Part shown: piece after piece, positions 4,269 to 62,043 of the stretch | How positions within the stretch are numbered: the stretch's first letter is position 1 | Layout of the letters: every line of letters starts with the position of its first letter | Origin: Candidatus Saccharimonadales bacterium | Lineage (GTDB): Bacteria > Patescibacteriota > UBA1384 > 2-12-FULL-50-11 | DNA: 64,000 nt | NCBI GenBank assembly: GCA_035480235.1 | Contig: DATIHX010000008.1 | Location: forward strand, 96,104-160,103 | Reading direction: 5' to 3' | Made by a program: the position numbers and the translations under genes | Notes under the pieces: generated by a model | What the model saw: only the letters and a program-made list of their open reading frames with translations | Told to the model about the DNA's origin: nothing | The model's database searches: none

Positions 4269-5209
4269 TTACCTCCTTGCGGCCTCGTTCGCCGCACCTC
4301 ACACTGGTCGATGTTAATATTGGACAAGACTTCCATCTTGACCCAGACCCGGTGATAGCTGTCGGCACCAGAGCCGATCACCACCACCTCGACGACAGAT
4401 GCCGTCGCGACGACTTGGCCGTTGACGTAAACGGTTAGTTGTTCGCGAAGATTTGGAACCGGTTCGTTGCAACTCCACTTGATTGGCAGATAGCGGCAGA
4501 GCTTGATCGGAGCCGAATTGGCACCAACCTTTTCTTCCCGAAGCCGATTGTTTTCGTCGGTCAAGTCTTTAATGCGACGCATCAGATCGTCGGTATTGGC
4601 GCCACCTGTTTGGGCAGCGTCGCGTTTCCCTTGATCGTAAGCTTGCTTAATCGCCGCGTCGAGCTGACCAGCAGTCATGGATTGACCACCCTTGGTGGTT
4701 GCTACCGTTTCTGGAGCGTCAGTGTCGATGACGAACTGCGTTGCCGGAGCAGCTGAGGCGTCCTTATTCTGGTTGCCTTTACTGTCCTGGCCGACGAAGT
4801 AGGCTTCGATCGAATGTTCCAAGCCAAAGAACATGTCGTCGACCTGGATGTCGTGCGCGTTATGATTGGAAAGACCTTTGACGTGGATCTCCTCGTCCTT
4901 AAGCGCTCTAATACAACCACCACGAGGAAGACGAATTCTCCCTTGGTACGGTGGCGCATCAAATACGGCAACAATCGAGCCGTCAAAACGGATGCCGCAT
5001 GGACCAGGGTTGTGATCACCAGTCAGCGGCAAAACCCGGTAGTCCAGGTACGGACCGAGCAAGTCTTCACCAAGCCGGACCGCAACTCGGCCTTGACTGG
5101 TGTAGCGAATGTGCCATGACCCTATGAGCGCTGGCTTGACAGCCGCATTCGCTGACAAAGACAGCCCTAGGGTGAGAACGACGAAAATCAAAGCAAGAAT
5201 TTTTCTCAC
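4265..5209 (-). CDS. secreted hypothetical protein (Sec signal peptide)
   Basis: GTG start with AGGAG upstream. Signal peptide MRKILALIFVVLTLGLSLSANA. A 4-nt overlap with the downstream gene suggests translational coupling. Confidence 0.75.
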   Translation of the reverse strand: MRKILALIFVVLTLGLSLSANAAVKPALIGSWHIRYTSQGRVAVRLGEDLLGPYLDYRVLPLTGDHNPGPCGIRFDGSIVAVFDAPPYQGRIRLPRGGCIRALKDEEIHVKGLSNHNAHDIQVDDMFFGLEHSIEAYFVGQDSKGNQNKDASAAPATQFVIDTDAPETVATTKGGQSMTAGQLDAAIKQAYDQGKRDAAQTGGANTDDLMRRIKDLTDENNRLREEKVGANSAPIKLCRYLPIKWSCNEPVPNLREQLTVYVNGQVVATASVVEVVVIGSGADSYHRVWVKMEVLSNINIDQCEVRRTRPQGGK

Positions 5210-11856: not shown

Positions 11857-11891
11857 GGAGTTTGCTTAGTATAACCTATACTTCTAGTTCT

Positions 11892-12075
11892 CAGCCAGGG
11901 CTGCCGTTCTATTCCAAAGGACAAGGGGCTTTTTGCGAGGCAGCCCCTTATCCTGTGGAGACTCCAATCCCTTCTCGCTTCTCTACGAGGTAAGGAGAAA
12001 ACCTCCGACTGCAAACCGGCAAATGGCACTGTTTGCTCCTCCGGTTTTAGGAACTATTTTATAGGCGACAAAAAG
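11892..12075 (+). ncRNA. structured intergenic repeat family, copy A
   Basis: Shares a conserved core and helices with 16825-17008, 38781-38971 and 51192-51383 (see findings). Confidence 0.6.
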
Positions 12076-12087
12076 AGAGGTAATACC

Positions 12088-12116
12088 TTGACTTTTTGGG
12101 ACGAATCTGCTAGTAT
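12088..12116 (+). promoter_or_regulatory. consensus-like extended -10 promoter
   Basis: TTGACT, 17 nt, (TGC)TAGTAT. Confidence 0.7.
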
Positions 12117-12158
12117 TCACCTGTTCTTTTACAGAACGGATACGGCAGGGAGGGATAC

Positions 12159-12770
12159 ATGAAAAGAATTACACTTGGGCTTCAACCTCGGAAAAGCTCC
12201 GGTGCCGGAGAAGTCCTTCTGGGACTTTTCGGAGGCACCCTATCGTTGCAGCGCATAGTCTTGGAGCGGGCATTTAAAGTGTTCCAGCCCAAGGCGCTTG
12301 ATTTCATCTGGCACATTCGGGAGAGCGAGAACCTCATTGCAGAGCCTCACCAGCTTTGGGTCGACTACCAGGCGTCGTTCGTCGATGCTGATTTCGAAGT
12401 TAGCGATAAGCTAACGTTGCTTGGTCAGTATTTGAAGGCGTTCGACGGACACCTCTTCAACGATAGCGAGGTGTGGGATGACGTGCTCCGCAATATGCCA
12501 GACACGCCCTACTGGAACCCCGAGTGGCCAATGCCAGCGCGCATCAAGGTCGGATGGGAGTATAGCAAGCCTCCGTACGATCTCACGGTTATCTATGGAG
12601 CTGACAGCGATGAGCAGATGGCCCACTTGCTCACACACCACCACCTCGACGACATCCTCAACGGGATGTTGCCAATCATTGAGGAATTTCTCAACAGAAA
12701 GGTACAAGAAATACTCAAGATGGATCCTTCGTGGTTCGATGAGGAATCAGAAGTCCTAGTTGAGGATTGA
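12159..12770 (+). CDS. hypothetical protein
   Basis: 203-aa ORF with GGGAGGG upstream, its own promoter and its own terminator. I recognise no motif. Confidence 0.7.
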   Translation: MKRITLGLQPRKSSGAGEVLLGLFGGTLSLQRIVLERAFKVFQPKALDFIWHIRESENLIAEPHQLWVDYQASFVDADFEVSDKLTLLGQYLKAFDGHLFNDSEVWDDVLRNMPDTPYWNPEWPMPARIKVGWEYSKPPYDLTVIYGADSDEQMAHLLTHHHLDDILNGMLPIIEEFLNRKVQEILKMDPSWFDEESEVLVED

Positions 12771-12779
12771 CCACAATTC

Positions 12780-12816
12780 AGCCGGACGAGACAAAATCTC
12801 GCCCGGCTATTTTTTT
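12780..12816. terminator. bidirectional terminator
   Basis: AGCCGGACGAG...CTCGCCCGGCT followed by T7. Confidence 0.75.
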
Positions 12817-16737: not shown

Positions 16738-16824
16738 ATTTTTAGAGTGTAACAGAGAATATTGTACTATTTTTTTAGAAATGCGTCAACGCGAGAAATA
16801 AGATCTTTTGAAGAATGCTTTTTG

Positions 16825-17008
16825 CAGCCAAGGCTACAGTTTTCATTGGAAAGGACAGGGGGCCTATTTGCGAGGCAGCCCCCTATCCTCTCCACTCCAA
16901 CCCCTGCACGCTTCTCACAGAGGTGTGGTGAAAACCTCCGGCTGCAAACCGGCAACTGGCACTGTTTGCTCCTACGGTTTTAGGAACTATTTAATAGCTA
17001 CAAAAAAG
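16825..17008 (+). ncRNA. structured intergenic repeat family, copy B
   Basis: Same architecture as copy A. Confidence 0.6.
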
Positions 17009-17029
17009 CTCGGGATTTCAAACCCGAGC
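17002..17029 (-). terminator. terminator of the membrane protein gene
   Basis: GCTCGGG-TTTGAAAT-CCCGAGC followed by T6 on the minus strand. Confidence 0.75.
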
Positions 17030-17038
17030 ATTGGGGAA

Positions 17039-17416
17039 CTATCTGGAGATAGAGGGCTTTTTTCGGTCAAACCACTCCACGAGGTTATGTGCCTGGAAGT
17101 ATACGAACCACCCCCAGACGAAATAAGCGGCCAGCAGCATTACCCAATCCAAGAGAAAGATGAGGAAGATTGAGAGAGAAAAGTGCTGGTTGTAGAGCTG
17201 CAGCTTGAGAAAGGCTGCTGCCGTCGCCGAGACGAATCCAGTAGGGTATTGGTACAAGAAAAGTGTATCATTGACCACAACCTTAACTGAAGCAAAGATT
17301 GTGAGGCCGGTCAGGATCAAAAAGCCTAAGACCGCCAGAATAATTAAAAAGAGCGTCATAACTTGCCTCCAAGCAAATGTTGAGAAAAGCTTAGCAAAAA
17401 TTCTCGAGAAAGTCAA
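17039..17416 (-). CDS. hypothetical membrane protein
   Basis: 125 aa with multiple hydrophobic helices. It overlaps the rodA stop. Confidence 0.6.
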   Translation of the reverse strand: MTFSRIFAKLFSTFAWRQVMTLFLIILAVLGFLILTGLTIFASVKVVVNDTLFLYQYPTGFVSATAAAFLKLQLYNQHFSLSIFLIFLLDWVMLLAAYFVWGWFVYFQAHNLVEWFDRKKPSISR

Positions 17417-38750: not shown

Positions 38751-38780
38751 GCTGCAGAACTATTTTTTATTTACTGTCTT

Positions 38781-38971
38781 ATGTGGCTAGCGCCACTGAC
38801 TATTATTTGAGGGTGAGGGGGCTAATTTGCTAAGCCGCCCCCTACACCCTCAAACTCCCTACCCCCGCAAGCTTCCTTTGCGGGGCAGTGGTGCAAGCTG
38901 ATGGCTGTCAACCGGCAACTGGCACTGTTTCCTCCATCAGCTTGAAGAACTATTTTATCGGCGGCAAAAAA
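38781..38971 (+). ncRNA. structured intergenic repeat family, copy C
   Basis: See findings. Confidence 0.6.
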
Positions 38972-38984
38972 TTGGGGAAAAGCA

Positions 38985-39013
38985 TTGACAATTAGTTCGA
39001 AATATGCTATAGT
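38985..39013 (+). promoter_or_regulatory. consensus extended -10 promoter
   Basis: TTGACA, 17 nt, (TGC)TATAGT. Confidence 0.72.
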
Positions 39014-39037
39014 TTCTCGGTGTGACGCAACACAAAT

Positions 39038-39295
39038 ATGATTATGCGCACACCACTAAACGGCCTTCGGCCGCCAACAGCATTGCCGCAAGGCATTACT
39101 ATCGTCAACGTTCAGGTACTTTGGGCGACGGGAATACCTGTCTTTGTAAGCCTACCAGCTGGTGTTGAACTAGCTAGTCAGGACTTCATTGGTGGTGTTA
39201 TCCGTTTACCTAAAGGCTCTTACTACTGGAGCTGGCAACTTACCATCTGGGTAGAGTGTCTAACCGAAGTAGTCAGGAGCGGCACTTGGATATGA
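39038..39295 (+). CDS. hypothetical small protein
   Basis: 85-aa ORF lying between a consensus promoter and a terminator. Confidence 0.6.
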   Translation: MIMRTPLNGLRPPTALPQGITIVNVQVLWATGIPVFVSLPAGVELASQDFIGGVIRLPKGSYYWSWQLTIWVECLTEVVRSGTWI

Positions 39296-39299
39296 ATTC

Positions 39300-39328
39300 T
39301 TTGCTCGCCTTCCCAGGCGAGCTTTTTC
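39300..39328. terminator. bidirectional terminator
   Basis: GCTCGCC-TTCCCAG-GCGAGC followed by T5. Confidence 0.75.
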
Positions 39329-39562
39329 TTACGCGGATTTGGCGGGAGTTGAAGTAGCGGCAGCGGGGACGCGGGCGGTTTTGGAGTTCAGGCCGGCGGC
39401 TTTGAGAGTCCGGCGGCAACGGGAACAGATATACAAACCGTTCCACTTTTGAAGGTTTGGCCGCATCAGCCGCTTGGTTTTATGCAGCGACTTGGGGCGG
39501 TTGTTGGCGGATACGGCAGTTTTACCGCAGAGCGCACAAAATGTATTTTTCGAAACTTCCAT
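39329..39562 (-). CDS. rpmB: 50S ribosomal protein L28
   Basis: CALCGK...NNRPKSLHKTKRLMRPNLQ pattern. Confidence 0.88.
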   Translation of the reverse strand: MEVSKNTFCALCGKTAVSANNRPKSLHKTKRLMRPNLQKWNGLYICSRCRRTLKAAGLNSKTARVPAAATSTPAKSA

Positions 39563-50886: not shown

Positions 50887-51159
50887 ATGCGCATGCTTAA
50901 CTTCGTCCTAATCTTGATTGTTTGCCAGCTTGCTTTGGCTATTTACTCCTTCCTGGAGGGAAAATGGGGCAAGAAAAACTCCTCCAAGCTACTCCTTGCT
51001 GGAGTAACGACTATGACTACCTATCTTTCGTTTCTGTTGCTAGCACCACTGCTGAAGGATAATCTGTCACCCTATCTTGTGGGAAGCAGCATCTCTTTGT
51101 TTGTCTGTTTGCTCAGCTATTACTGGGGCTTAGTCAGCTCTCGTAACAATGCCGCCTAG
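50887..51159 (+). CDS. small membrane protein
   Basis: 90 aa with three hydrophobic helices. Confidence 0.55.
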   Translation: MRMLNFVLILIVCQLALAIYSFLEGKWGKKNSSKLLLAGVTTMTTYLSFLLLAPLLKDNLSPYLVGSSISLFVCLLSYYWGLVSSRNNAA

Positions 51160-51163
51160 TTCC

Positions 51164-51187
51164 GCCGCGCGCCAGCGCGGCTTTTTT
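51164..51187 (+). terminator. intrinsic terminator
   Basis: GCCGCGC-GCCA-GCGCGGC followed by T6. Confidence 0.8.
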
Positions 51188-51191
51188 GATT

Positions 51192-51383
51192 CTTTTTGCC
51201 GTCAATACAATAGTTCCTAAAACCGGAGGAGGAAACAGTGCCAGTTGCCGGTTGACAGCCGGAGGTTTTCTCCTTGTTCCCGACCAGGGAAGCGTGCCGG
51301 GGTACGGGGGTTTGGGGGCCTAGGGGGCGGCGTCGCAATAAGCCCCCTGGCCCCCAAATAATAGTAAGTGGCGCTAGCCACAT
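51192..51383 (-). ncRNA. structured intergenic repeat family, copy D
   Basis: Inverted orientation. It begins 10 nt after the radA stop. Confidence 0.6.
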
Positions 51384-51393
51384 AAAATGGTGA

Positions 51394-61794: not shown

Positions 61795-62043
61795 ATGGAC
61801 GCAAAAACCTTACTTGAGCAATTCCGGGAAGAGAAGATCTCCCCTCAAGCATTTCATGAATCGGTCAATTGCTTGTCGGCAAACGAGAAGCGAAAATTTC
61901 AAGTGTTAGCCCGTGAGAAGCTTCGCCAAAGTCTGAAAGACGGTAGCCTAATGAGACGGGTCTACGACGCGGCTCGACCAGTTCTCGAAAGACATGACAT
62001 GATAATGCGTTACGACGGCCAATCCGGCCGTTACCGTGTCTGA
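61795..62043 (+). CDS. hypothetical small protein on the opposite strand inside the dcw cluster
   Basis: 82-aa ORF followed by a strong terminator. Confidence 0.55.
   Translation: MDAKTLLEQFREEKISPQAFHESVNCLSANEKRKFQVLAREKLRQSLKDGSLMRRVYDAARPVLERHDMIMRYDGQSGRYRV

Follow-up and report, generated by a model that had tools for sequence, protein, structure and literature searches.

A lineage-restricted structured repeat in intergenic spacers of Patescibacteria and the case for its being mobile or recombining

A hairpin-rich intergenic element of ~185 nt occurs in a 64,000-nucleotide stretch of the genome of a Candidatus Saccharimonadales bacterium (assembly GCA_035480235.1, contig DATIHX010000008.1, positions 96,104 to 160,103 of the forward strand; hereafter the window), and three to four helices are common to its copies. 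The element is multicopy, its helices covary, its occupancy of orthologous sites is patchy, its copies show mosaicism or gene conversion and in some cases decay, and its taxonomic range is narrow. We favour, at a probability of roughly 0.55, the reading of a structured repeat that is restricted to one lineage, non-autonomous, and mobile or recombining, and that resembles in behaviour the miniature inverted-repeat transposable elements (MITEs) and the repetitive extragenic palindromes (REPs). It is the patchy sites, the assembly breaks, the mosaic and decayed copies, the inconsistent orientation and the lack of a conserved promoter and terminator which speak for a mobile repeat over a non-coding RNA (ncRNA) gene. 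An earlier reading made from the letters of this DNA alone (the sequence-only reading) had offered a novel ncRNA or an RNA-like mobile repeat; the multicopy, non-coding and structured character which it described holds, as do the compensatory changes, and of its two options the comparative data favour the second.

A covariance model (CM R1), built from six full-length copies and searched against the window with filters off, returned four full-length copies at 178-207 bits, whose positions agree to within a few bases with those of the sequence-only reading. Copies are given below in the orientation in which that reading described the element (the reader's strand).

Copy A, 11887-12078, plus strand; model match 11887-12071, 178.5 bits.
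Copy B, 16820-17008, plus strand; model match 16820-17003, 178.9 bits.
Copy C, 38779-38971, plus strand; model match 38779-38967, 203 bits.
Copy D, 51192-51385, minus strand; model match 51196-51385, 207.3 bits.

All other matches in the window reached at most 20 bits and are antisense echoes of these four; the window holds exactly four copies, without hidden degenerate ones. A core of ~31 nt is invariant among copies A to D and the relatives G2 and G3 described below, and its string AACCGGCAANTGGCACTGTTT is found exactly four times in the window (at 12014, 16947 and 38910 on the plus strand and at 51233-51253 on the minus strand), against a chance expectation of 0.02. The core, the tail, the two 5' subfamilies and the stems first quoted for the element are all present in the sequence, including the hairpin 1 stems GGGGCT/AGCCCC and GGGGGC/GCCCCC, their extensions AGGA/TCCT, GAGGGTG/CACCCTC and GGGGGCC/GGCCCCC, and a helix closing the core which reads AAAACC/GGTTTT or CAAGCTGATGG/CCATCAGCTTG. 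The modules of the element, as they lie in copy A, are as follows.

P0, 11892-11903, plus strand; small terminal hairpin CAGC-CAGG-GCTG, with GTGGC-TAGC-GCCAC as its counterpart in copies C and D.
P1, 11914-11958, plus strand; long two-part hairpin, CCAAAGGA-C-AAGGGGCT / loop TTTTGCGAGGC / AGCCCCTT-A-TCCTGTGG.
Linker and P2, 11959-11997, plus strand; C-rich linker (ACTCC..CCC) and a hairpin around the conserved CGCTTC.
P3, 11998-12048, plus strand; closing helix AAAACC/GGTTTT around the core TCCGACTGCAAACCGGCAAATGGCACTGTTTGCTCCTCC.
Tail, 12049-12078, plus strand; AGGAACTATTTTAT..GGCGACAAAAAG.

Pairs were counted in a plain sequence-only MAFFT alignment (A7) of six full-length copies, a hand alignment of ten copies being analysed separately, and the structure scored comprised P0, the two-part P1, a short P2, the closing helix of P3 and the inner core pairs. 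In A7, 92.1% of the cells are paired and both sides have changed in 14 of the 40 pairs; none of 500 shuffles attained the observed pairing, compensatory-pair count or covariation score, and a control in which the partners were slid by 1-3 columns gave 39-56% pairing with at most six both-side-changed pairs. These double changes fall in P0 (3/5 pairs), P1 (7/15) and the closing helix of P3 (3/6). The 11 inner core pairs show no covariation in the same alignment, each being either invariant or broken, and because they never covary the fold of the core is a prediction only. The structure is thus under selection, P0, P1 and the P3 closing helix being supported by compensatory change beyond the controls, the invariant core excepted; the compensatory changes put forward in the sequence-only reading are borne out by these counts.

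Further regularities are found within the helices. P1 of copy A forms an inverted repeat (I1) of 18 nt that is 89% complementary; in the hand alignment, all ten copies carry a bulged or mismatched A at the same place on the 3' side of P1 (reader's orientation), and all ten keep the loop motif TTGC(G/T)A. P2 is present in every copy, but its pairing register relative to the conserved CGCTTC shifts from one to another, so that the description of a second hairpin with a constant GCTTC loop needs correcting; for this region the consensus fold predicts a closing helix CTCC/GGAG on the complement. In copy B the left end (16821-16829, TTTGCAGCC) is the perfect complement of the opening letters of the core (16940-16948, GGCTGCAAA), and GCT(A/G)CA appears three times: once in the core, once at the right end and once in the 3' strand of the P0 stem. 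Another, long-range pairing may exist there, or the end may have been duplicated internally.

No protein or catalogued RNA accounts for the element. Rfam 15 at gathering thresholds found five tRNAs only across the window; when copies A, C and D were scanned permissively, the best scores were 14-22 bits against thresholds of 34-105, all to generic hairpins. The element belongs to no Rfam family, and the sequence-only reading likewise could place it in no RNA family. It had also called the copies free of open reading frames (ORFs), which does not hold to the letter: several frames are open across single copies, but none is conserved between copies, and six-frame translations of eight copies revealed no ORF conserved in frame or length and no conserved small hydrophobic ORF. 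As the frames differ between copies and the indels are not multiples of three, the element is non-coding; a protein database search with all of its six-frame peptides matched no protein. The lack of a conserved frame rules out a type I toxin-antitoxin or other coding identity. Chance similarity, or a fragment of a protein gene or pseudogene, could appeal to the frames open across individual copies, but is refuted by the count of exact cores, the differing frames and the peptide search, and we give it practically no weight.

The syntenic DNA of relatives was gathered via RadA and TopA homologues, and comprised the following sequences (percentages are identities to the proteins of the window).

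G1; this genome, the window.
G2; GCA_034680565.1, TopA 92%, RadA 89% (L051, L062).
G3; runs SRR21686417 and SRR21686418, TopA 86%, RadA 87% (L052, L053, L065).
G4; SRR28521187, RadA 86% (L054).
G5; GCA_964463625.1, TopA 81%, RadA 88% (L063, L066).
More distant relatives; Logan contigs, TopA 74% and 71% (L064, L069).

The window itself is 99.99% identical to a contig of GCA_964636455.1, and the named RadA and TopA homologues, at ~61-65% identity, come from Patescibacteria or Berkelbacteria. The covariance-model scan proposed in the sequence-only reading, run on the window and these relatives, gave further copies in G2 to G5 besides the four of the window, and occupancy of the orthologous spacers was patchy.

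Site upstream of topA; filled in G1 and G3 (L065), empty in G2, G5 and L064.
Site 3' of radA; filled in G1, G2 and G3, empty in G4 (34-bp spacer) and G5 (radA and a PBP gene abut).
ftsW-rplU spacer; filled in G1, G2 and G5, empty in L064.
mraY-murF spacer; filled in G4 only, empty in G1, G2 and G3.

Although G2 is closer to G1 than G3 is, its topA site is empty and the dprA stop lies 24 bp from topA; in G3, where the same site is filled, the distance of the copy to the conserved TATACT box differs from that in G1. The G4 copy lies antisense inside the mraY-murF operon. No copy was found in 37 kb of the relatives with 71-74% TopA identity. Four independent short-read contigs (L052, L053, L065 and L068) end inside the element, a signature of a multicopy repeat; one of them, L068, matches the window at 100% identity and breaks off at 38916, within the core of copy C.

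The copies have also exchanged and lost parts. Copies A and B, from one genome, are 83% alike, more than copy B is to the orthologue at its position in G2 (73%); this orthologue combines a P0 of the A/B type with P1 and P2 of the C/D type. In the G5 copy (L063) the whole core has given way to another hairpin, itself perfect, within a closing helix that is compensated (AAAATCTG/CAGATTTT); the inner P1 of L065 is damaged and the G4 copy (L054) carries an insert of ~50 nt in P3. That insert (L054 1140-1200) resembles the native spacer upstream of murF (window 61900-62000, minus strand; TTCTC..TTG..CGA.AATT.AC.GATT), so that the G4 copy may be a chimera. Such turnover and exchange between copies mark a young repeat family, unlike vertically inherited RNA genes.

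Outside the clade, scans for the exact core in GTDB species representatives, JGI metagenome contigs and viral contigs gave only chance matches with no similarity in the flanks. The exact core is a poor scan pattern, the loop and stem of P1 being the part common to all variants; a pattern based on P1 found nothing in the viral contigs, and blastn matched no phage or plasmid record. As far as these comparisons reach, the element does not appear to be phage or plasmid DNA.

On the reading favoured here, the element would spread or be exchanged among the intergenic spacers of one narrow Patescibacteria clade. A folded single strand, either RNA or single-stranded DNA and most likely the complement, would be recognised by machinery that copies, moves or processes it, and this is likely why the hairpins are kept by compensatory change. 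The ~31-nt invariant core at the tip of P3 would then be a probable sequence-specific recognition site, and effects on neighbouring genes, such as on transcript ends or promoter spacing, would be by-products. Transposition, as opposed to spread by recombination only, together with an intermediate, a partner protein and a role for the core, are points which we infer.

The choice of strand draws on folding predictions. By folding energy the complement is the more stable strand in 8/8 copies, and against dinucleotide shuffles it reaches z = -3.48 in copy A and -3.63 in copy D (reader's strand, -1.65 and -2.30). The RNAalifold consensus is -46.8 kcal/mol with 44 pairs for the complement and -38.7 kcal/mol with 40 pairs for the reader's strand. 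The structure predicted on the complement contains 18 G.U against 7 A.C mismatches, and that on the reader's strand 8 G.U against 10 A.C despite a prediction biased to its own strand; in the hand alignment, P0 and P1 in the reader's orientation show 8 A.C against 1 G.U. The two core variants, GCAAAC..GTTTGC and GTCAAC..GTTTCC, lie three linked substitutions apart, which on the complement turn two Watson-Crick pairs into tandem G.A/A.G and on the reader's strand into U.C/C.U. These comparisons should be considered with caution as G-rich strands gain generally from G.U, and they do not separate RNA from single-stranded DNA. It is nevertheless probable, on these models, that the folded strand is the complement; the strand chosen in the sequence-only reading, judged by z-scores, consensus energy and the conversion of A.C to G.U, was then probably the wrong one.

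A folded complement would also suit the main rival, a multicopy family of trans-acting small RNA (sRNA) genes of ~180 nt, transcribed from the complement from just after a conserved TAAAAT box, in which the core would bind a target or protein and the stems would be a scaffold. The covarying helices fit such a family, as do the z-scores of about -3.5 and -3.6 for the complement, and so does a ~31-nt core that is invariant across three species where the 5' two-thirds are only 56-80% alike. There is, moreover, a -10-like box: the complement of the tail of copy A reads CTTTTTGTCGCC-TATAAAAT-AGTTCC, a T-run followed by the -10-like TAAAAT, and a TANNNT box lies at a fixed distance before P3 in 6/7 copies. 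No -35 stands at a workable spacing, however, although other promoters here show a clear TTGAC(A/T/G)-17-TAnnnT, and no terminator lies 3' of P0 on the complement. A sigma-70 scan placed promoters only outside the element and pointing away from it (3' of A and of C), with terminators of convergent genes 3' of B and D; no promoter and terminator pair is conserved across the copies and no terminator follows the last helix. Against an sRNA gene, too, presence varies among genomes whose TopA proteins are 86-92% identical, decayed copies are tolerated, one of which (L063) is without the core, and one copy is antisense within the mraY-murF operon. We therefore regard an sRNA family as unlikely, though the strongest of the competing explanations.

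The surroundings of the four window copies bear on two further explanations. Copy A is placed between the topA start (11856, minus strand) and the promoter of a 203-aa ORFan, and copy B between the rplU promoter (16761-16789, minus strand) and a terminator (17008-17029, minus strand) that belongs to a 125-aa membrane ORFan. Copy C begins 30 nt past the stop of a zinc-finger (zf_Tbcl) gene and has a strong promoter (38985-39013, TTGACA-17-TATAGT) on its 3' side; copy D begins 11 nt past the radA stop, and beyond it lies the terminator (51164-51181, plus strand) of a convergent 90-aa membrane ORFan. The orientation to flanking genes is inconsistent on either strand.

One of these explanations is a cis-acting host element, such as a 3'-end stabiliser, a terminator or an insulator between packed genes; roles of this sort have been described for REP, ERIC and Correia elements. 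In five copies (C, D, L051, L053 and L054) a co-oriented gene stops 6-30 nt before the element starts, P0 with its U-rich stretch was flagged as terminator-like, P3 is bracketed by A4 and U4 and was flagged in the same way on the complement, and the element always lies between a conserved and an accessory gene. But no single role fits all copies, since divergent promoters precede A and B; the stems flagged as terminator-like are weak, at 4-6 bp, and in copy C P3 lacks a U-tract behind it; where the site is empty, the genome copes with a spacer of 0-34 bp; and an invariant 31-nt core would be superfluous. A host role in cis seems to us improbable.

The other explanation concerns the two ends of the element. 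The P0 end abuts the conserved backbone in 4/4 window copies (topA promoter, rplU promoter, zinc-finger gene stop and radA stop), and the tail end in 4/4 abuts lineage-specific content.

12088-12116 and 12159-12770, plus strand; promoter and 203-aa ORFan on the tail side of copy A, forming the block 12088-12770, within 12088-12806.
17039-17416, minus strand; 125-aa membrane ORFan next to the tail of copy B; its place is taken in G2 by an unrelated 73-aa ORF and in L064 by nothing.
50887-51159, plus strand; 90-aa membrane ORFan next to the tail of copy D; its G2 counterpart is 49% identical, and in G4 and G5 it is absent together with the element.
38985-39335, plus strand; predicted unannotated transcript unit of ~310 nt on the tail side of copy C.

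None of the three ORFans has a Pfam match. Copy A and its ORFan block constitute an insertion between dprA and topA relative to G2, G5 and L064, and ORFan and element are jointly absent at the empty sites of relatives. The element could on this evidence be a structured recombination substrate, or a guide RNA on the complement, belonging to a new Patescibacteria mobile system that places small cassettes in spacers; it would then mark one cassette boundary, in the manner of attC or of a bridge or omega RNA, outside the known integron and insertion-sequence families (compare attC, the TnpB right-end RNAs of IS200/IS605 and the bridge RNAs of IS110). Besides the sidedness and the joint absences, the conserved bulge in P1 and the retention of structure over sequence are typical of single-strand recombination substrates. 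There is, however, no attC R''/R' frame and no array, the clade DNA that was fetched holds no integrase, TnpA, TnpB, IscB or IS110-type gene, the two ends lack similar hairpins and a conserved target motif, and the G4 copy has no ORFan. Four sites are also too few to exclude coincidence, and the regularity on the tail side may reflect spacers that are generally variable. A cassette system, as substrate or as guide, is thus a doubtful prospect.

The reading as a mobile or recombining repeat has its own difficulties. The element has an asymmetric build, made up of an invariant core and four hairpins that differ from one another, which is unlike palindromic MITEs and nearer to an RNA gene; stems that change around a 31-nt core which stays identical between species would suit a trans-acting RNA as well; and strains could gain and lose copies by homologous recombination with one another, with no transposition involved. 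A T-run and an A-run lie at the two borders of the element, with ends CTTTTTTGYAGC. At the B locus they form a terminal inverted repeat, which speaks for the mobile reading, but a clear repeat of this kind exists at that one locus only, in two orthologous copies: 10 nt in copy B (TTTTTGCAGC/GCTACAAAAA at 16819-16828 and 16997-17006) and 13 nt at the B locus of G2 (GCTTTTTTGTAGC/GCTGCAAAAAAGC). These B-locus repeats (10-13 nt, CTTTTTTG[C/T]AGC) give way at other loci to a looser T-run and A-run with G-Y-N-G-C, and T-runs are common in spacers. No direct repeat indicating a target-site duplication flanks the four window copies, nor is there a conserved target motif; the borders of the insertion at the A site are similar at 9/12 positions, which is not convincing as a duplication. 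No transposase, integrase or other partner gene was seen among the Pfam-annotatable neighbours in ~250 kb of clade DNA (the ~64 kb window and ~190 kb of relatives). Finally, there are only about ten copies, several of them orthologous, so that the covariation statistics are thin.

Several other identities were tried and rejected. A sigma-54 promoter (TGGCAC-N5-TTGC) was dismissed on inspection, the GG-GC spacing being 10 and not 12 and the C/D variant lacking the GC, and inspection likewise gave no convincing match to a LexA/Cheo box, a DnaA box, parS or dif. The promoters 3' of A and C are not part of the element, as their ~55% identity over 42 nt is mostly promoter consensus; nor was the rplU promoter brought in by copy B, the same promoter being present at the empty site in L064. 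A riboswitch or cis-regulatory leader was discarded in view of the mixed orientations and the variety of neighbours (topA, rplU, the zinc-finger gene, radA and mraY-murF). A replication-strand bias of the copies was also set aside, the GC skew being too weak and four copies too few. The skew of the window is positive at ~4-32 kb and zero to negative at 32-64 kb, with a cumulative maximum at ~30-40 kb and genes mostly on the minus strand, a pattern that could be a weak replication-related switch or an effect of composition.

Some features of the neighbouring DNA deserve to be recorded on their own account. The unit at 38985-39335 (plus strand) has a near-consensus promoter, ~310 nt without a convincing ORF, and an intrinsic terminator (GCTCGCCTTCCCAGGCGAGC and a T-run, ~39305-39332); it is convergent with the L28 gene (39329-39562, minus strand) and its Rfam signal is a sub-threshold match to RprA only (32.6 bits against 70), driven by the terminator. 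From its sequence signals it is a candidate for an unannotated ncRNA. In L063 of G5 (4360-4512, minus strand of the locus) a tandem duplication takes in the rplU promoter region (..AAATCGTCAACG..) and part of the 5' end of the element (..CAAGGCTACAG..), which looks like a local rearrangement at the border of the element. In three genomes the only signal ahead of topA is a conserved TATACT box ~13 nt before the ATG, a Shine-Dalgarno sequence being absent (window 11857-11891, L062 9977-10000, L065 148-197), which suggests that its leader is very short or absent. The rplU gene is called at 210 aa in G2 (L062 5039-5671) and at 121-133 aa in other genomes; the longer call is an annotation artefact of the repeat, the ORF having been extended backwards through the element.

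The genomes of Patescibacteria (the Candidate Phyla Radiation) are streamlined and very small, and a literature search found no description of interspersed structured repeats in them. The repeat family is previously undescribed and matches no catalogued RNA gene. It provides a marker of recent genome flux in the clade, in practice it breaks assemblies and leads to mis-annotated ORFs such as rplU in G2, and it offers a handle for finding the enzyme or RNA pathway which recognises the element. If it is no more than a selfish repeat, what it adds to the MITE-like elements already catalogued in bacteria is modest.

Among known systems, the ERIC/IRU and YPAL-type repeats and the Correia elements of Neisseria are non-coding, intergenic, multicopy sequences of 100-190 bp in either orientation, whose occupancy varies between relatives, whose hairpins show compensatory change and which can carry or abut promoters and terminators. 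The element shares with them its size, its location in spacers, its copy number, its variable occupancy and its compensatory hairpins. They are, however, essentially one long imperfect palindrome formed from terminal inverted repeats, with TA duplications in Correia, whereas the present element is asymmetric, with four hairpins and a core, short T-run and A-run ends and no detectable duplication. With classical MITEs it has in common multiple copies and presence/absence polymorphism at orthologous sites, but not the target-site duplication.

The E. coli QUAD/Sib-Ibs repeats, which are multicopy sRNAs or type I toxin-antitoxin loci, form ~4 dispersed intergenic copies of ~150-190 nt with a conserved structure, and the element is similar in copy number, length and structure. 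It differs in having neither a conserved hydrophobic ORF on either strand nor a promoter and terminator pair, and in that its copies come and go. Integron attC sites were likewise first noticed as a repeat family (the Vibrio cholerae repeats); they are 57-141 nt long, conserve structure more than sequence, possess extrahelical bases and lie beside ORFan cassettes. The element, too, is conserved in structure, has an extrahelical base and adjoins small ORFans, but at ~185 nt its copies are dispersed singletons and not arrays, with no integrase nearby. An attC identity as such was rejected, a regular expression for RYYYAAC...GTTRRRY having found no frame on either strand of any copy.

REP and BIME sequences with their RAYT transposases, and the PATEs derived from IS200/IS605, are imperfect hairpins, specific to one strand, in which an extrahelical or mismatched base is conserved and which lack classical inverted repeats or duplications. 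The element is similar in these respects, and like them it tolerates G.T on one strand only, as would be expected of a single-stranded DNA substrate. Those systems need similar hairpins at both ends and a conserved target of 4-5 nt beside one end, whereas P0 and P1 of the element are unlike P3, its flanks share no motif and no Y1 transposase was seen. The BOX elements of Streptococcus pneumoniae are modular and mosaic, with conserved and variable modules, subfamilies that arise by mixing of modules and no assigned transposase. The element is likewise modular and mosaic; in BOX the modules boxA, boxB and boxC vary in copy number within an element, whereas in this element the modules keep one order, exchange being limited to those at the 5' end and to the tip of P3. 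As far as their defining features could be checked, the element is set apart from each of these families; in its behaviour it is nonetheless of the manner of ERIC, BOX, Correia or REP-type repeats.

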